Source of the DNA: Mytilus edulis
Taxonomy: Eukaryota
DNA: 64,000 bases
Direction of reading: 5' to 3'
Assembly: GCF_963676685.1 (NCBI RefSeq)
Contig: NC_092347.1
Coordinates: 62,992,001-63,056,000, forward strand
How positions within the stretch are numbered: position 1 is the stretch's first letter; every line of letters begins with the position of its first letter. The notes below the pieces were generated by a model. It was not told the DNA's origin and ran no database searches. It worked only from the letters and a program-made list of their open reading frames with translations. Positions 50,617 to 63,698 of the stretch are shown piece by piece. A program made the position numbers and the translations under genes.

Positions 50617-51546
50617 TCAGCAGACTTTCTTAATTTCTTTTGTTCGACGCTCGTATTCGAGTAGATTTTTTGGTCTGACTCCTCCTGCCTTCATGGGTGG
50701 ACAAAATGAATCAAATGTTTTGTCCCAGTGATTAAAGAACGGAGAGAAGTTGGTAAGCGGCTTCAGATGATGCATGTCGTGTTTAGGTGCTCCACCAATC
50801 ATCCCAAATGGAAGGATGTTATTGAGACTGAAAGGAAGATCAAAACCAATATGAGCTTCCACACTCACGACGATGCTCAGCAGCATGTACGACCATGTTG
50901 TCATGGGATGGCATTTGAAAAACCACGTATTTGTAGTGGTCAGGAACCCAACGGTGACCAGTTCCCATGGGTGGAGATACTGTGTGACCCAGACAAATGG
51001 ACTGTGGTACCTGTGATGTACAGAATGGATATGCTTGTAGAGAAATCTCACCTTGTGGTGGGTCCAGTGCCAAACAAAGTATTGGAAGTCGAATACTATT
51101 AAACTGGCAATCTGTTGCCAAACAAATTCAAACCAGCTTGGTGCCAATTCTGGAAGTGGTGTAGGCGGTGTCCATATCATTTGTCCGACTGCGGCAGGGA
51201 GGATAAAAAGCACATGATTCCAAAATGTTAGCTGTAATGTATCAAATACCTGATCGAGTGTTACTTCTTTGTCAGTTTGAATTTTGTATTTTTGAATCCA
51301 TTTCCATTTTTTTCCATATATATCCGCAATCATAAATGGTGTACATAGCGAAAAGTAAAATGCTACAGATAGAAAAACCGGGAAAAGAGGGGAACTAACG
51401 AGATCCTCCCTGCCGAGTCTAAAATCCCATATAACTTGTAGAAGAGATCGTCCGCTGGATAATGCATTATTTCTCACAACACCGGTTAATACGTCAGATG
51501 TGTTTATATATAATGCTCTTCCAAATTCTAAAATTCCTTCAGTCAT
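50617..51546 (-). CDS. CH25H: Cholesterol 25-hydroxylase-like protein (fatty acid hydroxylase/sterol desaturase family), intronless, 309 aa
   Basis: Uninterrupted ORF from ATG at 51546. Three His boxes (HWTHH, HSVHH, HDMHH) and CH25H-type motifs [47 protein letters not shown]. Single-exon like vertebrate CH25H. Confidence 0.9.
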
Positions 51547-51577
51547 ACTTGTGTATAAGCAAAAATTAATAAAATAC

Positions 51578-51589
51578 GAAAAGCGAAAC
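51578..51589. promoter_or_regulatory. IRF-binding element-like motif upstream of the CH25H-like ATG
   Basis: GAAAAGCGAAAC matches the IRF-E consensus GAAAAGYGAAAS, 32-43 nt upstream of the start codon. Confidence 0.4.
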
Positions 51590-52678
51590 ACAGAATGTTA
51601 CGTCCCTCTTTCCCGGTCTTGGCTCCTAATCCTATCAAAGCAACATTGTAAATATAGTCCGTTTATACAAAACGAAGGATTATATTATAAATGTGTTATC
51701 ATATCAACAACACGCTTATTCAGCTTGAGGCACACACACAGGAAAATATCGATTGAATGATGAAGATATCAATTATCACTTGAGGATACTAAGATTTTTA
51801 AAAGGAAATTACTTTACAAAGTAACAAATACTACAAGACATTATTACTTCTCAATTAATTACAAACGGTTCATAAATTTCTTTAACAATAATATAATGAC
51901 TGTGTCAAATCTTTTGGTCGAGGTAATTATAAACAATAGACAAATACTATGTCTGATTTTTTACGATGTTTCGTACACACGTACGTAAATTGACACATGA
52001 GAATATACCAGTTTATAATTGTTTATAAATACCTTGACCAAACGATTTTGTGACAGATGCATGTGTCGACCAGTGTTTTATTTTACTATTATATATATTT
52101 ATGTATTTTGTATTTTTTTCGTCACAAGCTGTTATTTGGTATATGCTAAAGATTATTATTATGAATTTTCAAAAGATTACGATTTTGAAGAGTAGCTGAT
52201 CGTAGCTCAGGATCTGTCATAAACGCTTAATTAAAAATTACAAACAACTCAAAAGACATCTAGAGATCTATATGCGCTCTATATATCGCACAATCTCAAG
52301 GGTTGAATTGGGCATACAATAATAATAATACAATATTTTATTAAAGTGTCACCTATGGACATCCTTGCACTTCTGGGTCGAGCCTGGCAGTAATTAAATC
52401 GGGCGTCTATTTGTTGTAAAGAAAGTATTAATACCGCGGCAGACTCAGTCAAGTTCTCTGCACTTTAAAAAAATGCATTGCAACACTTTCAGGGGGTCCC
52501 TAGGTAACCTGTTACAATACAAAGTTTGCCTTATTCAGCATAACTTATTTCCATATGGTAGTTCAGATCCCGCTATAAACCCGAGTAAACATATTTTAAA
52601 AATTCTACCTATTGTTTTCATTATCAATTTGTTCTTGTTCTAAGTACACATAAATTAATTGTTTGTCACTGGACACTA

Positions 52679-53852
52679 ACTCAATCCAACCATCAATCTA
52701 AATCGCCCCGATTTTTGAACTGTATAATGAATAAATAGTATGTATAACTCAATCCAACCATCAATCTAAATCGCCCCGACTCTTGACCTGTATAATGAAT
52801 AAATAGTATGTATAACTCAATCCAACCATCAATCTAAATCGCCCCGACTCTTGAACTGTATAATGAATAAATAGTATGTATAACTCAATCCAACCATCAA
52901 TCTAAATCGCCCCGACTCTTGACCTGTATAATAAATAAATAGTATGTATAACTCAATCCAACCATCAATCTAAATCGGCCCCGACTCTTGACCTGTATAA
53001 GGAATAAGTATAACTCAATCCAACCATCAATCTAAATCGCCCCGACTCTTGAACTGTATAATGAATAAATAGTATGTATAACTCAATCCAACCATCAATG
53101 TAAATCGCCCCGACTCTTGACCTGTATAATGAATAAGTATTACTCAATCCAACCATCAATCTAAATCGCCCCGACTCTTGAACTGTATAATGAATAAATA
53201 GTATGTATAACTCAATCCAACCATCAATCTAAATCGCCCCGACTCTTGACCTGTATAATGAATAAGTATTACTCAATCCAACCATCAATCTAAATCGCCC
53301 CGACTCTTGACCTGTATAAGGAATAAGTATAACTCAATCCAACCATCGATCTAAATCGCCCCGACTCTTGAACTGTATAATGAATAAATAGTATGTATAA
53401 CTCAATCCAACCATCAATCTAAATCGCCCCGACTCTTGACCTGTATAAGGAATAAGTATAACTCAATCCAACCATCAATCTAAATCGCCCCGATTCTTGA
53501 ACTGTATAATGAATAAATAGTATGTATAACTCAATCCAACCATCAATCTAAATCGCCCCGATTCTTGAACTATATAATGAATAAATAGTATGTATAACTC
53601 AATCCAACCATCAATCTAAATCGCCCCGACTCTTGACCTGTATAATGAATAAATAGTATGTATAACTCAATCCAACCATCAATCTAAATCGCCCCGACTC
53701 TTGACCTGTATAATGAATAAGTATAACTCAATCCAACCATCAATCTAAATCGCCCCGACTCTTGACCTGTATAATGAATAAGTATAACTCAATCCAATCT
53801 TCAATCTAAATCGCCCCGATTCTTGAACTGTATAATGAATAAATAGTATGTA
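52679..53852 (+). repeat. Minisatellite, 18 units of 68 or 61 bp
   Basis: Unit ACTCAATCCAACCATCAATCTAAATCGCCCCGACTCTTGA(A/C)CTGTATAATGAATAA(ATAGTAT)GTATA, starting at 52679, 52747, 52815, 52883, 52951, 53013, 53081, 53142, 53210, 53271, 53332, 53400, 53461, 53529, 53597, 53665, 53726, 53787. Confidence 0.97.
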
Positions 53853-53893
53853 GACTATTTAAGATCTGTCATTTTACATAATATAAATATATA

Positions 53894-54815
53894 CTGCGTA
53901 TTTCTTCTCACAGACTAAGAATTGAACAAGGTCGCTATCAGGGTACTCTCAGACAAGACAGGATATGTCTCAGGTGCACCTCAAATGAAGTTAATGATGA
54001 AAAACATTTTTATTCTCTCATCTCAAGATTAGAGAAATTGTTTAAATTCCACTATTAGCTCACTATGCCCTAACTTTATGTATTTGATTCCTAGCCAAAA
54101 ACTGATATGGCTTCTTATTAAATGTAGAGAATCTTGATATCTTAATATCTGTCTGTGAGTTAGTTGATGAAGACAAAATATAACTTGAAAGATAAATATT
54201 TAAATCAGGCTTTCTGCACTAGGCACGAGGTTGGCATGGTGGGGTATAGGACACATCGTATAAGTTCTATTACCTTTCTGTTTGTGATATTTTTTTTTAT
54301 CAAACTGCTAATATTTTATCCTTTTCGTAATATGTGCACTTTGGAATGTCAATTAGCATTGTCCCTTGGTGCCTCTTGCAGTTGTGTCACTTTAAAAAGT
54401 AGTGACTCCTCTGCACCAGGCACGAGGATGACATACCAGTTATGTGCAACTTCTTACAATATTTTACCATATCATTAGTGTCCTGATACAGTTTAATATG
54501 CACCCACCATGCCATATAGCACCGTCCCTTGGTGCCTCCTGCAGTTCGGCTAGATATATTCGGCCTACTCACAGTGTTCCTTTTTGTTACTTTCTAGAGG
54601 TGTGCCTGAGACGAAGGTTTTATGTATACTCCTATATGTATATATACATATATATAATAATAATACATGAAGACTGTTGTCTCTTATTTGTGTTTGTGAC
54701 TATGTATACTGTATTGTTTATCATATTTGTAAAATAATAATATTGTAATGATATTATTATCATGCTCCTTGTGAGCCCATTTTATGGAAATAAAGAATTT
54801 CTTCTTCTTCTTCTT
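53894..54815 (+). mobile_element. 5'-truncated LINE 3' end (RTE-X-like ORF2 C-terminal zinc-finger region, 3' UTR, (CTT)n tail)
   Basis: Translates LRISSHRLRIEQGRYQGTLRQDRICLRCTSNEVNDEKHFLF, then frameshifted LCPNF...KLIWLL, stop near 54183. AATAAA at about 54789 followed by a (TTC)n tail. Clade assignment is from motif recall. Confidence 0.85.
54214..54544 (+). ncRNA. Candidate structured RNA element (two motif copies) in LINE 3' UTR
   Basis: Two copies each of CTGCA-nn-AGGCACGAGG and AGCAYYGTCCCTTGGTGCCT-nn-TGCAG, with extensive internal complementarity; see findings. Confidence 0.7.
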
Positions 54816-54992
54816 ATACTATCTGGTATCTATATGATGTCAATATATATGATTGATTGATTAGTGTTAAACTGCACTTTCGCCACTATTGTACTATTTC
54901 GTGGCGGTCAGTTTTTATTGGTGGAGGAAGCCGGAGTGCTCTGAGAGAACAAACGACCTTCGGCAGAAAAACTGACAAGTCGAGTCAAGTAA

Positions 54993-55251
54993 GGGAGCTA
55001 CCATTTGATTTTTATGGGGGGGGGGGGGGGGGGGGGGGGGGCTAGGATGAAATTTGAAAAATATAGGCAGGACAGGAGTTTTGAGTAAAAAAAAGGCAGG
55101 ATGAGACACTTGCAAAAAAAAAGGCAGGACCGAACAGATTGAAAAATAAAAAGGCAAGACAGAGATTACAGCTATAAAAAATGCAGGACAAAATGTTTCA
55201 TCCTAGCCCCCCCCCCCCCTTTTCTCCCATAAAAATCAAATGGTGGCTCCC
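54993..55251. mobile_element. PIF/Harbinger-like MITE with poly-G/poly-C tracts, inserted in a SINE
   Basis: TIRs GGGAGCTACCATTTGATTTTTATGGG / CCCATAAAAATCAAATGGTGGCTCCC, TAA target duplication, internal GGCAGGA repeats. Confidence 0.88.
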
Positions 55252-58172
55252 TAATATTGGACTTGAGCGCACCTGTCATGTGCGGAATTCGAACTCATAA
55301 TCTCAGTGTTGACAAGCTAATGATACAGTAGTTGAACTACTTAGACCATTCAATATAGTTTGTCCAAGCTACTACATATATTAGCTATGCGTGCGTTTGA
55401 CGCAATCTTGGAGATTTTTATAGACTCTAATTCGTTTACATTGTCAATTTTTAATCGGGATTGAAATTTTTCTCGTTATTTTTTTATGAACATGATAAAA
55501 AGGAAGAGAGCCCATGTTCCAATAGATCCTCTATGTAAACGACAACACCCCGTGGAGGGAATAACAGCATTATGCATTCTGCATATCATTTGCATAATTT
55601 AGAATAGACGATGATTCTCTTTCTATTAAATGGGATTACAAGGCGCATTAGCACAACATTAGAGATTATCTTAGAAAAAAACTCAATAAAATCAAACAGT
55701 TTACAAAATATGACCTAGATAATTTGGGAATTCAGTGGCATGTGTAACTTAATTGCAGACTGACCGGGCATCAAGAGACGCTGCAGTATGGCAAGGTGGG
55801 CGATGGAGGCACATTGCATTTGCATGGGGATGGACGATAGTAATTTATTTAATAAATATAATAGATGTACATACAACTGACAAGTCATCGTCGTGTATGT
55901 CTGATGCAAAATAACTCGTTTGGTGATCCAACTTGCATGATGCACCAAAGGACAATGCTAAAGGACATGTCCAATAGCACATAGTACCCAATACAAACTA
56001 ATTGGAATAATTATTTACGTCTGATTATAAATATACAAAAGAGCATATAGTAATATAATCAGATGTATCAGGGTACCACTTTGCCACCCTCTTGTCTAGT
56101 GTGCAGATAAGTTTAATTATAGATCTATAGTTTGTCTGAAGTCACCAATAAAATCACAGAAAAAAAATAAAAGTCAATACAAACTCTCAACAGCATAATT
56201 TCCCACGCAAATCTTTCATCCAATTTCAAAAAGCAGAGGCTGTTTTTTGGATGCCCCCCTCCCTTTTTGAGGGAAAATTATTTTGGTTGGTTGTATAAGA
56301 AATCAATGGAGCATAACGGGAGTCAATCAATTATGAAAATTTCTGGATCCGCCACTGTTAAGTATCGCATATTTTCTCACTTGACTATTTTCTCAGTCAT
56401 ATATAAAAGGGCAAATTGTCTAGGAATTAAAATAGTTTAAGTTTAGGATTTCGGGTTTTGAATGAATTAATATGTTTGCAGAAAAAAGGGTTTCGGCATT
56501 CCAGGAATAAACCAACCAAAAGTTCTGATAATGGAATGCTATTTATTAAACTGTTCAAACCACATGAGTAAGTTTGAAACTTGAAACTTTTGTTTCTCAA
56601 GACCCAGTCAGGGTATGTGAATATAAATCTAAACAGTATATTTCACCTGCTGATAAAGCACCTGCTAATATAGAACCCTCAGCTGGTGATACGGCACCTT
56701 TTACTGCAAATTTGATTTACCTCCCTTTGCCCATGACTTAAGTTTTCAGAGCTTACAACTATTAAAATTACGCTCTACCGTTTTAAATTTACTTTTCGAA
56801 ATTGATAATAATAAACTATTTTTTTTTTTGTAGCTTTGAACGTCTTGTTGTGTTAACCAGAGTCAAGTATTTACAGAAAAGGAATTAATATAGTTAAAAG
56901 TTTGTATTTTTAAGTGAAATTACATTGAAATGAAAATACGGTAAAACATTATATAATAACCTGTATGAATATTAATATTTGTGAGGTGCAAGGTGTATGA
57001 GAAATGTTTTTGAGAAACAATTTTAAAAGAACAATATTCAGATGCAAGAGACTGAAGGTGTCATAGCATTTATTCAATGTTTGATTATTGTGTTGATGAT
57101 ATACATGTATGTCATACACTTTAAAACATTGTCTTGTGATATGTTTGTGTAATATGTAATATATATATGCATACAAATGTTGAATAAAGGAAAAAAACAC
57201 AAATGAAAATGGTTTGATTCCACAGTAATTTGTCCGTTGTCATTTAAAATAAATTAATCATGGATTATAATTAGTTTAATTAGTTTATAGGGTTATGAAT
57301 GATCTTTACTCTCATAAACAATATGCATAGTTACAGATTACTGATACATATTAAAGATAAGATAAGATATTTTTATTCCAATGGAAGTGGCCATGAAGAA
57401 GACGATGTTTTATTACCATTAAAAAAAGCCTTGGAGCATAGTACAATATAAGACATTTAAAAAAAGATACAACAATATTTTAGTATACACACATAGAGAA
57501 GAAAAGGCAGTTTGAACATCATGAACAACACATATATAAATATAGTTATTAGATATATGAAGATTTGGTGTGAGTGCCAATAAGACAACTCTCAAATAAC
57601 AATTTAAAAAAAAATAAACCATTATAGGTCAATTCCCTTCTTACTCAACACTAAACAAAAAGATCATAAAATAAATTGGCAATGTATAGCAAAACCCACC
57701 AAAAAGCTGCATGGCAAGGTGGGAGACAGACCGGCTCACATGGTGTTATACATGAATGTAAAATATATAATTTGGTTATGATATTATGAGCAGATGTACA
57801 AACCTGGTATATATAAACCAGTAGTTTTAACCATGTGTATTTCGGATGCTCTTTCCACACCGGGAAAGGCACCTCCCAAACCTCCAAAGAAGTGGAAGGA
57901 TTAATAAATCTGACTTTTCCCACTGCAACACAATTTCCAGTTGAATATAGTATTACTTGAATGAATATGTTTAATATATTGAGGTAAGTACTTGGATGAT
58001 ATAATAGATCTAATGGTATTGTATCTATAGATTTGTAGAAAACAGGCCCAAGTTTTCAAGAAACAAATGTATTTCCAGTTTCGGTGTCCAACTAGTGAGG
58101 AACCAGTTAAGCGGTTTATTTACCCAAGAAACTGAAACCAGTTTCAATAGAGGCAAAAGACAATCTCCCACT

Positions 58173-60441
58173 ATGTCAAAGCAGGCCGAGCCACCACGTG
58201 AAAGACCTAAAGTTGGTGTTGGTGTATTTGTAACAAGTGAAGATCATCCAAACTGTGTTTTAGTAGGAATAAGAAAAGGCTCAAGTGGTAGCGGGAAGTA
58301 TGCATTGCCTGGTGGTCATTTAGAATTTGGGTAAATATATAAATTTATTGCTTTAGACAGGGATCCAGACTGGTAGGCATTCACATAATGAAGTCTCCCG
58401 TCTTGTATGGGAATAAAAGGAAGATTTCTGTACTTGCACAAAGTCTATCAGAGCTCCGGAAAAGCCAGTGTATATACCAAAATACAACAGATCATATGCA
58501 TATATACTTGACTGATTTTAAAAATAAATATAACCACGGATGACTATCTTGAGTTGTAAAATAGATAATAACTTTTCTCAATCCAATAACTTGCTGACGG
58601 AAAACCAAAACATTCAGGATCGAATTATGGTGTGGTGTCAAAATATTAATTACAGGCGCGGATCCAGAGGGGACGTTTTGGACGATCAATGCATTTGAAT
58701 GGGGACATGTAATTAGACCCCCCCCCCCTTTGTCCTGGGTTAGGAACCCCCCTTTTTAAAATGGCTGGATCCGCCTCTGCATTATATTCAGAAACTCGAT
58801 CGAAAAAAAAAATCAAAAATGAGAGGAGAAGACGTTACTAAGTTGTAAAACTTGTGTCTAATCCATTTGTCATTTTGAACAATAAATAATGTTTAAACTA
58901 CCCAAAAAATAAATGGAGAATGTGTCCCCATGGAAACAGATGATGCCCCCGCTTGCCATACAACATTATAAAGGGACATAACTCAAAAACGATAAAAACT
59001 GACGGTGATGCTATCCAAATTTGTACTTGATCAGGGTTTTGTGGTAATAAGAATATTGTGTATAGGTCTCATATTGTTTGGATGGGGCAAACTAAAGTTA
59101 CAGAACGGAACTTGAACTAATTTTTTTTTATTTATAAAGGACATCACTCGATAATCTTAAAGTGATAATGACCAACTTGATCTGTATTTTGTGGTGAAAA
59201 GCATTGTGTATAAGTTTCATAACATTCAATTCACTTAATTAAGTTAGACCACGGAAACTAAAATTTTTGCTTTGTTTTCCATTTGCATAGGGGCATAACT
59301 CTTGAATGATTAAAGTGATCCACCAAAATTCTAACTTGATCTGTATTTTGTGGTAATAAGCATTGTGTATAAGTTTCCTAACATTTGGTTGAGGCAAACT
59401 TAAGTTACAGAACGGAAACTAAAAAAAATAGCAATTTTTCCATTTATAAGGGGCATAACTCTACAACGGTTAAAGTGATCTACCAAAATTCAAACTTGAT
59501 CTGTGTTTGCTGGTAATAAGCATTGTGTATAACTGAAGTTTTATAACATCAATAGATATAGGGGTTTCAAATATCAAAGTTAAGGCACTCTGACCTTGAC
59601 CTTTGGCCGCTTTGATAGCACAATATTGTCGGATCTGTGTTCAGTGCATAACTTTTGTGCCGAAGCATTATTCTTGCCATTAGATTGACAAAACTCTGTA
59701 TGCAGAGGCATCATACCGAATTTGGTTTTGTTCCCATTGATGCAATTTTAAACATTGTCTGATTTGTGTACGGCGCATATACCTTTTGTACCGTAGTACT
59801 TAGATTGACAAAACTGTGTATACAGAAGAATCATTGGATCAGATCACGGTGTCAGATACCAAAATAAAATGATATTGACCCTTGACCCCTATCGTAGGGG
59901 TATAATTGTTCTCTCTAGAACTAATTAAGGTTTACTTTACCAAATTAAGTGTACATGATGCATTGTGTGAAGGTGAATTGTTAGTAAAAATAGGTCATTG
60001 TTCTTTCATGTCTTCACGACCTTTGAACCCCATATAGTTCATCAATTTTTAACTTGATCGAAAGCCAAAAATCTCAAAATGTCACTGTCTCAATACTGAT
60101 TTTCACAGCAACAACTAAAATGCATGTACGGGCGTATTAATCCCGCTATGCAGACAGCTCTACTTTGCACTGTTATAATAAATTGCAGAGAAGAATGGGA
60201 AGATTGTGGTTATAGAGAAACTATGGAAGAAACTGGATTACGGCTGAAGAATACTCGGTTTGCTACAGTAGTGAATGGAATCGTAGAAAAAGAAAACTAC
60301 CATTATGTAACATTGTTTGTACACGGAGAGGTAGACACAACTGTCCAATCAGAGCCTGTGAATCTGGAACCTGACAAATGTGAAGGTACTTAGGCCCAAA
60401 ACAAAAATAATACATGTATGTCTTAGGGAGCTACCATTTGA

Positions 60442-60473
<32 letters not shown>

Positions 60474-63400
60474 CTAGGATGAAAAATTTTGTCCTGCATT
60501 TTTTTTTAGTTGTAATCTCTGTCCTGCCTTTTTATTTTTCACTTTATTCGGTCCTGCTTTTTTTTTTTAGTTTATCCTGACTTTTTTTACATAAATTGTC
60601 ATCCTGACTTTTTTTTTTGCAAGTGTCTCATCCTGCCTTTTTTTTCTTCTCAAAACTCCTGTCCTGCCTATTTTTTCAAATTTCATCCTAGCCCCCCCAC
60701 CCCCCCTAAAAATCAAATGGTAGCTCCCTTACAACTAACGTGTTGGGAAAATATAGGGTATAGGTAGGTAGGCAATATCATCTTATTTTACAAACATTTT
60801 AAAGCTAGTTACTACTAGGGAATCTGTCTTACTTTAATTCAGTGCTTGGTTAAAAATGGAATAAAACGTGTTAGGGTAGACAATAAAAATTAGGGTAGGT
60901 AGGGTTAGCGGAACATATGTATATTTTTTTTTTGGCCTAAGTTAAAATAGCAATACACCAAAAGTGACGCTGTCGATCACTCGTATCATCATGAGCGTAT
61001 TTGCCCTGGATATATAAGATAAGATAAGATAAGATAAGATAAATTTTATTTTCCAAATTAGGTCCCCAGGGGGGCATATACACATAACATATATGATTGA
61101 TACAACATACAGTATTTTACGTAACATTGTAAAATAAACTATTGAAATAGTCATACAGGTATTATTTGTTAAATAAAAAAGTATTTGAGAGTTGCTACTC
61201 CAGAGATGTGGCAAACCCCATTTATTTATTTACTTTTTTTTTTCTCACTTGATTTTATAATATTTTGCTGAAAATGTATAAATATAAAATATAAAATAAA
61301 TGATTGTTTAGCTGCAACAGACACCAAGGGACGATGCTCTAGGATTGTGATCTTAAAAGCTCTAACAATCCTCCTCGTATCTGATGCAGAAAAACAAACA
61401 CAAATGAAAAAAGTTTATCTATATTCACAGCAAATAACTTATACTGCAGTAAACAGGTATTGAGAATAGTGTATGTTTCCCTACTGCAACAGACACCAAG
61501 GGGCGGTACTCAAGGAGCTGTGGTATTTACACAGTCCTCCTCGTGTCTGAAGCAGACAAGAAAGCCACATAATTAACAATTTTTCGAAATAAATTTACAT
61601 GCAGCTGTGAGAATAGACTTATCTTCTGTGTTCATAAGCCATATCAGTTTATCTCTTGCGTTAAGAGTTAAAAAGTTGGGGCAACTTTTAGTTATCTCTT
61701 GAAATAGATGATTGCGGTCATCATTAAATTTAACACATTGGAATAAAAAATGATATTCATCCTCCACATCTCCGGAGTTACAACGAGTACAAGTTCTGTC
61801 ATTTAGGAGAGTACCCTGATACCTTCCAGACTCAATTCTTAAGTGGTGTGATGAAATTCTGAGCTTTGTTAAGCTTATATATTTGCCTACTCGTAGACAG
61901 CAGTCTCTTCATGCGAATTCAGGTGTTGATTTGGTTAAGAAGCAAAAATATCAACAAAAAACAATTAACCACCAAATAACGAAACTGTGATAAAGAATGG
62001 CACATTTTATAAACATGTCTGTAGAAAAAAGATGGTACGATTAAGATTGGTAGGGAAAAGGCTTTTAAAACTGTCGCATATTATAAATTGTATACAAAAA
62101 AAATACCTTATAGTCATGATACTGTTAAATTTTGAAGAAGAAAAAAATGATTGATAGTGTTGAAAAACTAAATAAATATGTTCGCGCTCGTTTTGCGAAA
62201 GAAAAAAATCAACCCCTATAAGTTAATTTTTTGCTTAAGGTAGATTCCACATATCAAAATTTGCTGAACACGATTGCAAAACCATTGTTTTGAAATGGAA
62301 TAAGGAATCTCGGACAAATATATATTTACTGTACACGGTGACCAAAACTTTTAAACAGTCGTTTTAATCGGTCCTACTAAAAAGCGCCCGGGAAAAGAAA
62401 AAGCGCCCGGGGAAAGGAAAAAGCGCCCGGGAGAATAAAATAATAATATTTTATAACAATAATTTTTTTCCTTAAAAAAAATAAATAATCATTGCTTGTT
62501 TTGTCCTTTATATAAATGTGGATATGATGCCTGAAGTGTAATATTTTCGCAACTTCACGACAGGCGAGGATCCAGAGGGGGCTGGATCCGCCCCTGCACG
62601 GTGAACACTTTTTTATGCAGATGCGGATATACATTTATTATATCTTTTTTATGAAACTAAGACTGTTTCAATGGCTATGCTTATCAGGGTTTGAATGCTT
62701 ATTTTTAAATTTAAACCAAACTCCTGCTTTTTACCCCCTTGTTTTAACTACGGTACATGTATAGTACTGCTTTATTTGCTGATCTATTATGTGTAACTCT
62801 TAATTTTAATTTTGTTTAAATTAATATTTATCTGTTAAATTTAAGTTTTTTTTTACATTTTTCATTTTGATATCGTTTTTGAAAAACATGCCTTTAGATG
62901 TCTTACATTTTATAAATCTTCCGCATAAACTGTGATCCATTATTATCAGTCTTTCGAAATAGTATTTATAAATTATATTATTGTTAAAATTGAAACATTC
63001 ATACTTGTTTTATTACACACGTCTACTATCTGAATTTGAAAATTACTTTTCTAAAATAAAAAAAAAATATTGTGCATAACTTATTTCATCAACACAAAGT
63101 TGTCTCATGCCAATGAAATATCTATATATTTCCCCGGGCGCTATTTTTTCTTCCCCGGGCGCTTTTTCTTCACACGGGCGCTCCCGGGCGCATTTTAGTA
63201 GGACCCGTTTTAATGGCAATCAGGAACACTGTGAACCTATTGTATCTTCATAACCGATAGCAAGTATATGGGTGGGATTGTGGAAAGATTCTATGCACTT
63301 AGTTGGAATTAAGTACTCTAAAATTTCAAATGATCAATGTTGCGTTTTGATACATGTATGTTCTATTTTGGAACATCAACATTTTAGATGTCTTCATTTC

Positions 63401-63698
63401 AAATTTCGACATTTCATTCTTTCGGTTTATAATTATCATTCGATATTTTACTTCAGTATAAAGTGAAAGTTTAAGGCTTTACAGATTTTAATTAAATGAG
63501 AGTTGAAAATTCTGCAGCCATGTTTAGGTAGTCCTTTTATGTATTTCAGGTTGGCAATGGCTAAACTGGGACAATTTTGTGCCTGCTAATAAATGCTTTC
63601 GACCCCTTGAGATGGTGATTACTCAGGGTTACAATCCCTTCCATCCACCAAGAACTATATTGCGTGATTCTCAGAAAATGAAAAATGAAGACATTTAG
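58173..63698 (+). CDS. NUDT15: Nudix hydrolase 15-like (NUDT15/MTH2), 3 coding exons, 167 aa
   Basis: Exons 58173-58330 ([53 protein letters not shown]), 60189-60385 ([49 protein letters not shown]...EPDKCE), 63550-63698 ([10 protein letters not shown]...QGYNPF...*). Nudix box split across intron 1; phases 2,1; 504 nt. Confidence 0.93.
58910..59545 (+). repeat. Array of about 4 diverged 152-167 bp satellite-like units in NUDT15 intron 1, probably a Helentron-like core repeat
   Basis: Recurring AGGG(G/A)CATAACTC...AAACTTGATCTGTATTTTGTGGTAATAAGCATTGTGTATAAGTTTC...ACGGAAACT at about 58970, 59137, 59289 and 59449. Confidence 0.75.
60426..60728. mobile_element. Second copy of the PIF/Harbinger-like MITE, opposite orientation, nested in another MITE (about 60391-60940)
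   Basis: Same TIRs, TTA target duplication. Host bounded by TTAGGCCCAAAA / TTTTGGCCTAA. Confidence 0.88.
61015..61875 (-). mobile_element. 5'-truncated LINE 3' end (RTE-X-like), antisense in NUDT15 intron 2
   Basis: Minus strand [47 protein letters not shown]...SCPNF...KLIWLMN...KNC* (stop 61573-61575), then a 3' UTR, AATAAA and an (ATCTT)n tail at 61015-61045. Confidence 0.88.
61312..61555 (-). ncRNA. Candidate structured RNA element (two tandem hairpin copies) in LINE 3' UTR
   Basis: Copies at 61555-61484 and 61389-61312 share the consensus of the 54214-54544 motif, with compensatory stem changes. Confidence 0.7.
62370..63205. mobile_element. Non-autonomous DNA transposon (Merlin-like, tentative) in NUDT15 intron 2
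   Basis: TIRs GGTCCTACTAAAA / TTTTAGTAGGACC, subterminal arrays of AGCGCCCGGG / CCCGGGCGCT, flanking 8-9 bp duplication (C)GTTTTAAT. Confidence 0.82.

Follow-up and report, generated by a model that had tools for sequence, protein, structure and literature searches.

A covarying RNA module in the 3' UTRs of LINE families in the Mytilus edulis genome

Do the two tandem hairpins that lie on the minus strand behind the ORF2 fragment of a truncated LINE represent a selected RNA structure, and what could such a structure do for the element that carries it? Both hairpins are located in the window, which is the whole stretch of 64,000 nucleotides that was analysed, and the features identified there are shown in Table 1. 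An earlier note on this DNA had written out both hairpins from the letters, and its reading matches the minus strand base for base (61555-61484 and 61389-61312). We have found that the hairpins are copies of a selected, covarying RNA module in the LINE 3' UTR whose core is independent of its wiring. The module is a real structured-RNA family, apparently undescribed, in a known kind of element, and the functions discussed below are predictions.

The two hairpins and their surroundings in the window

Table 1. Features of the window that bear on the module, with their positions, strands and characteristics.
Feature	Position	Strand	Characteristics
Motif copy 1 (F1a)	61484..61555	-	72 nt; read on sequence, shuffles, partition function and 18-instance alignment
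Parts of F1a	strand A 61555-61539; 12-nt one-sided loop 61512-61501; bulged G 61497	-	order: strand A, Px hairpin, loop, 3-bp helix, bulged G, P2, P1
Motif copy 2 (F1b)	61312..61389	-	78 nt, 16-nt Px loop; basis as for F1a
Parts of F1b	strand A 61389-61373; loop 61340-61329; bulged G 61325	-	Px hairpin between strand A and loop
Second LINE family (F2)	54214..54545	+	module twice, nested: A1-B2 outside, B1-A2 inside
Third cluster	55780..56104	-	decayed motif halves, nested order; 23.7 bits, E 5.5e-5
RTEX-like LINE (family F1)	61015-61876	-	5'-truncated; 5' end about 61876
LINE ORF2 3' end	61576..61876	-	C-terminal Cys/His domain
3'-terminal hairpin	61062..61075	-	common to motif-less sister families
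LINE microsatellite tail	61015..61039	-	(TCTTA)n
Host NUDIX-family gene	about 58173-58330, 60188-60385, 63549-63698	+	three exons

The hairpins begin about 20 nt past the stop codon of the ORF2 fragment, and the terminal hairpin and the (TCTTA)n tail are located further downstream. This LINE copy, which belongs to family F1, lies antisense in intron 2 of the host gene, between exons 2 and 3, and exon 2 has a NUDIX match just under the cut-off (E 4e-4). The absence of a role in the host pre-mRNA, which the earlier note had expected, is supported, as the LINE is antisense and selection acts on the LINE strand. The F1 family of the window has 15 RNA reads, which are too few to inform. An exon that resembles the last exon of the NUDIX gene was observed about 4.4 kb beyond the end of the window (L337:5380), and it either serves the gene as an alternative last exon or belongs to a tandem paralogue. 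A protein with 99% identity carries a Mytilus name, in agreement with a mussel host.

Both hairpins fold better on the minus strand than all of their 200 shuffles, with z-scores of -3.85 (F1a) and -4.39 (F1b). The plus strand of both folds too (z -3.92 and -2.73), so folding energy alone cannot choose the strand. The 3-bp helix has a probability of 0.10-0.11 in F1b under the energy model compared to 0.58-0.69 in F1a; the helix of F1b is thus poorly supported by energy, and the consensus loop is based on covariation instead. A 20-nt pattern of the B strand has 148 exact matches in the genome and its reversed control has none, so the motif is not a product of chance. A looser B-strand pattern has 124 genome matches compared to 0 for its control.

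The hairpins had been described as the same motif as in the LINE at 54.2 kb (family F2) in a different topology. Module copies were indeed found at both sites, and the difference in topology holds in the partition-function model. The F1 element of the window pairs A1 with B1 and A2 with B2, where P2 pairs have probabilities of 0.65-1.0 and cross pairs of at most 0.01, whereas the F2 element pairs A1 with B2 and A2 with B1. The copies of 72-78 nt are usable as the minimal construct that had been proposed. The wording that they show the motif works goes too far, as conservation indicates selection and not activity.

The third cluster is single-copy in the genome by BLAST, and no ORF2 remnant was recognised upstream of it. 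Other neighbours in the window are a MITE-like element in two copies (54989-55254 and 60423-60732), which has inverted ends of poly-G and repeats of 30 nt inside, a tandem array of 61- and 68-bp units (52515-53860) that abuts the 5' end of the F2 copy, and an open stretch of 326 codons on the minus strand (50617-51597).

Architecture and covariation of the module

The module consists, in order, of P1, a pyrimidine mismatch, P2, a bulged G, a 3-bp helix, a 12-nt one-sided loop and a variable stem Px. P1 is UGCW on both strands, and P2 has seven positions, the outermost of which is often unpaired. The 12-nt loop is on the same strand as the bulged G and is faced by 0-1 nt in the 18 instances that were aligned. 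Twelve of these instances were reached via protein and six came from window or pattern searches. The F4b instance was taken from L126, which agrees with three of the eight F4 copies read; L093 has a slipped C-run.

Covariation was counted on a structure drawn from the same sequences, with a shuffle test that is inflated by relatedness. On this basis, the 11 permuted instances have 85.5% of cells paired and 16 of 25 pairs changed on both sides (0/500 shuffles as good), and the nine Px-closed instances, four of which are within-family variants, have 91.8% of cells paired and 7 of 19 pairs changed on both sides (1/500 shuffles). Slid controls for the permuted alignment are 33-53% paired. The individual swaps are nevertheless clean: each of the three pairs of the short helix varies and remains paired in 18/18 instances. 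G-U pairs outnumber A-C pairs by 20:0 on the LINE sense strand, or by 7:0 when one G-U-rich column is left out, and this excess places the selection on the LINE RNA. In all 18 instances nine positions are unchanged, among them three unpaired ones: the loop A, the loop C and the bulged G. The modal fraction is 0.79 in the loop compared to 0.41-0.55 in the flanks, and the loop positions that vary exhibit almost only C/U exchanges.

The earlier note had looked to conservation of the loop across many genomic copies as the point on which the motif stands or falls, which is the wrong test. The core differs at 18/2460 positions within family F5 compared to 95/17634 elsewhere, so it decays like the remaining UTR, as expected of dead copies, and the signal lies between families. 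The GYAYY/GGUGY pairing that had been suggested for compensatory rescue is also not supported so far, since it is broken without compensation in 5/18 instances. The hairpin that this pairing forms together with a GAGG/CCUU pseudoknot is possible in 13/18 instances and was rejected on uncompensated breaks in F3a, F4a, F4b, F5a and F6b. Pairing between loop GYA and P1 UGC was rejected as well, as it fails in F4b and in F6b, where P1 itself has changed on both sides.

New families of structured RNA that truly covary are seldom found in animal genomes. The 18 variants, the three wirings and the 72-nt construct offer a natural mutational scan that is already at hand.

LINE families that carry the module

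The module is present in eight LINE families of the M. edulis genome, twice in seven of them, and in one family from another record. To keep the pattern from preselecting its own results, the families were searched with an ORF2 C-terminus query, and UTRs were then read in 20 regions and four further loci. All seven families reached by this protein search (F1-F7) have the module twice each. F8, which was found by pattern, has a single copy, and L155, which comes from a metagenome record and is not closely matched by anything in this genome, has two. Three wirings were identified: tandem hairpins closed at Px (F1, F3 and F8), the nested wiring (F2) and a circularly permuted wiring closed at P1 (F4-F7 and L155). 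Among F2-F5, full-length ORF2s are 54-57% identical; outside the module, the UTRs of different families are not evidently similar. In two later pattern searches, the loci read (8/23) were all variants of known families. Family counts are lower bounds, as no genome-wide covariance search stands behind them, and eight may be near complete for intact copies.

ORF2 of these elements has APE (PF03372/PF14529) and RT (PF00078) domains and a C-terminal Cys/His domain. ORF1p has weak GDSL/SGNH esterase matches (PF13472, E 4.3e-5 and 0.0071), both under the cut-off, and a comparison of ORF1p to the PDB gave no esterase match. Together, the APE and RT domains of ORF2 and the weak esterase match of ORF1p fit RTEX-like elements. 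The excerpts consulted report LINEs of the RTEX clade with esterase ORF1p (PMC3905857) and the amplification of RTE-X in bivalves (PMC10294476), and the likeness extends to the bivalve host and the microsatellite tail. The elements differ from RTEX as described there in the module itself, since no such 3' UTR module was found in the literature searched.

That search, which stopped short of Repbase and paper supplements, returned no description of the motif. Those sources, notably the curated library of PMC10294476, may hold these families, probably without the RNA fold. Rfam gave 0 matches at the gathering threshold in the window and 11 LINE loci, and the best E-value in E-value mode was 1.8.

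F1-F8 and the closest motif-less families, G1 and G2, have in common a short, GC-rich terminal hairpin, and a conserved A-rich word lies between it and the microsatellite tail. This hairpin is likely the recognition signal of the reverse transcriptase. Both G1 and G2 are present in many near-identical copies, with full-length ORF2s and short UTRs. As these sisters keep a full-length ORF2 and the terminal hairpin without the module, the module is separate from the priming signal, and as they are active, it is not the universal reverse-transcriptase signal. The 3' UTRs are about 540-690 nt long in motif families compared to about 130-180 nt in the closest sisters. Stringent LINEs have 3'-terminal stem-loops, according to the excerpt of PMC5135761 consulted, and the module resembles these in being a structured element of a LINE 3' UTR. 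Unlike them, it is located 250-500 nt upstream of the terminal hairpin, which fits that role separately, and active sisters do not have it.

A quick tree of 10 long ORF2s places four motif families on one side of a branch with 95 SH-aLRT support, sister to G1 and G2. The more careful C-terminal tree of 19 rows, from which F7 and F8 were left out, exhibits one clade of motif families and G1/G2 in which the split is not resolved, and 42% of bootstrap trees separate them. A single gain of the module in one subclade would be the simplest reading of these trees. Twenty-two loci of more distant relatives in the genome were searched with both models and filters off; 21 of them have no module, and the sole match is a copy of F4. 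Among 20 relatives from metagenome records, four are near-copies of motif families, one is a motif-less family of this genome, one is L155, ten have a usable 3' flank and no module, and four are cut too short to judge. Viral contigs gave 0 matches to two patterns. Prokaryote genomes gave three single matches, which were taken as chance at scores of at most 18.6 bits, compared to 70-84 for true copies.

Two ORF2 relatives (P0052 and P0067) are labelled as bacterial MAG proteins, possibly reflecting host DNA in those assemblies. A Bcl-2-family exon (L093:1086-1622) lies just upstream of an F4 copy that has no ORF1.

Possible functions of the module

We tentatively prefer to read the module as a putative docking site for a protein that the element itself encodes, most likely ORF1p through its arginine/glycine-rich C-terminal tail. 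Once docked, ORF1p would begin to assemble the retrotransposition particle on the RNA of the same element. Together, the bulged G, the 3-bp helix and the 12-nt loop would open a widened groove or a folded pocket that a basic peptide could read, the two copies may serve a dimeric or multimeric ORF1p, and a site behind the ORF2 stop would stay out of the path of the ribosome. A core that tolerates any connectivity is as would be expected of a self-contained two-strand site. The ORF1p tail is RS...RG-rich in all three motif families in which ORF1 was seen (F2, F3 and F5; the comparison excludes F1, F4, F6, F7, F8 and L155) and unrelated in all three motif-less families (G1, G2 and G3), two of which, G2 and G3, have arginines in the tail too. 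As the motif families form one clade, this co-occurrence counts as one evolutionary event and is a lead, not independent support. ORF1p docking is opposed by the single copy in F8 and by the active sisters that manage without the module. RG repeats also usually bind RNA with little specificity, which counts against a reading by this tail.

Rev-RRE and Tat-TAR are binding sites of arginine-rich peptides. The module is similar to such sites in its short, bulge-interrupted helix by a purine-rich strand and in the basic peptide that the same element encodes. It differs from them and from lambda N-boxB, another arginine-rich-peptide site cited in PMC3905857, in sequence and fold, and its own binding is a prediction. 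An excerpt of that paper speculates that ORF1ps of this kind locate specific RNA structures by means of charged peptides. If ORF1p reads the module, the module would be the specific RNA element proposed there for esterase-type ORF1ps, and how such LINEs select their own RNA would become directly testable.

A doubtful alternative is that a host protein reads the module, either as a signal for Egalitarian-BicD-dynein transport of LINE RNA in germ cells or as a site for a translation or stability factor of a long 3' UTR. The 3' UTRs of motif families are indeed the longer ones, and this genome has an Egalitarian-like gene with three WH_Egal domains (L338:7122-8714, minus strand). In the excerpt of PMC13186709 consulted, Egl needs two bent stem-loops per transcript, binds the I-factor signal (ILS) and follows a rule of two U-A pairs that are 8 bp apart. 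The module is likewise a bulged helix in LINE RNA, and two elements per transcript are present in seven of the eight genome families and in L155. Its bulges are on one strand, namely the 3' strand in Px-closed forms, where the Egl rule places them, and the 5' strand in permuted forms. The U-A spacing, however, is found in 1/18, 2/18 or 0/18 instances by register. Egl signals have no sequence consensus and use the terminal loop, whereas the module has a conserved 12-nt internal loop and closes at either end. It is decidedly unlikely that two copies instead dock on each other by loop and receptor, in cis or between RNAs, for RNA compaction, dimerisation or an exonuclease block. The pairing of the module in 7/8 families agrees with such docking, and C/U exchanges in the loop would be expected opposite fixed G's. 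Against it, no Watson-Crick partner is consistent between instances, changes in P2 or P1 are not mirrored in the loop, and F8 is single-copy. A block to an exonuclease would be consistent with 5' ends of copies, which were mapped for 90/144 F5, 50/106 F3 and 50/83 F2 probe matches (141 resolved; 49 ran beyond the stretch fetched): of the 59 F5 copies with a resolved 5' end, 12 have it 30-60 nt upstream of the first loop (L094 sense, +95 to +122 after the ORF2 stop). This hotspot coincides with an A-tract and does not recur in F2 or F3, and 5' ends are AT-rich in all three families (0.75-0.80 compared to 0.65-0.70), so it was rejected as a nuclease block or cleavage site. A similar cluster of nine 5' ends was observed in F2 at a TA run. 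A ring-type exonuclease block is also not expected to survive permutation. That the module is a neutral relic of shared ancestry is extremely unlikely. All carriers are in one clade, as a relic would require, but this reading is largely refuted by surrounding UTRs that are dissimilar between families, by pairs that covary and by a module that outlived rewiring.

It is rather unlikely that the module represents a new class of small RNA, catalytic or ligand-binding, that is native to the 3' UTRs of animal LINEs and occurs naturally in three circularly permuted wirings; if it does cleave or bind a ligand, it would be a new functional RNA class. The ligand- or metal-binding form, an aptamer that tunes the LINE RNA, is very unlikely. 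The large one-sided loop against a purine tract and the bulged G may be aptamer-like in anatomy, but neither an expression platform nor a covarying alternative fold nor an Rfam match was found. The catalytic form, a new class of small ribozyme with its self-cleavage site within or close to the 12-nt loop, is quite unlikely. Hammerhead has the core words CUGANGA and GAAA, pistol has GAUAAA and SECIS has AUGA. These occur in 0 (CUGANGA), 0 (GAAA), 0 (GAUAAA) and 3 (AUGA) of the 18 instances, and all three classes were rejected; H/ACA snoRNA was rejected as well, with no consistent boxes by eye and Rfam E>1. The module has no known core. It is similar to the TS-like and other small self-cleaving ribozymes in the excerpts of PMC11620745 and PMC6765202 in its two-strand core, which is flanked by variable stems, in its naturally occurring circular permutation, in the invariant G, A and C that are unpaired, and in its retroelement host. 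The TS-like ribozymes (LINE-1/OR4K15) and twister-sister have a conserved CA at the cleavage site (PMC11620745), and the loop dinucleotide of the module is CA in 14/18 instances, UA in three and GA in one. The TS-like internal loop, however, is 5 and 6 nt between two stems (PMC11620745), and the loop of 12 by 0-1 nt in 18 instances excludes TS-like and twister-sister identity; the separate bulged G is a further difference. Known retroelement ribozymes release the element from a co-transcript, as far as the same excerpts describe (PMC11620745, PMC6765202), but cleavage at this site would separate ORF2 from the tail that priming requires.

Self-cleavage, which the earlier note had implied, has no support so far from 5' ends or read ends, as neither pile up at the loop. 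Only 1/141 5' ends over the three families is inside a loop, compared to about 4.6 under a uniform distribution of UTR ends, and no 5'-end position is common between F2, F3 and F5. One RNA-seq run, which is thin and apparently unstranded, covers F5 at a depth of 11-16 through both modules with no piled ends. These are weak negatives, given the low depth, the unstranded-looking library and the fact that cleaved RNA need not be copied. Three small-RNA runs have matches mainly in ORF2. The small-RNA reads, possibly piRNAs, pile up on the ORF2 of F5 (L094:2895-3286) and nearly avoid the motif region.
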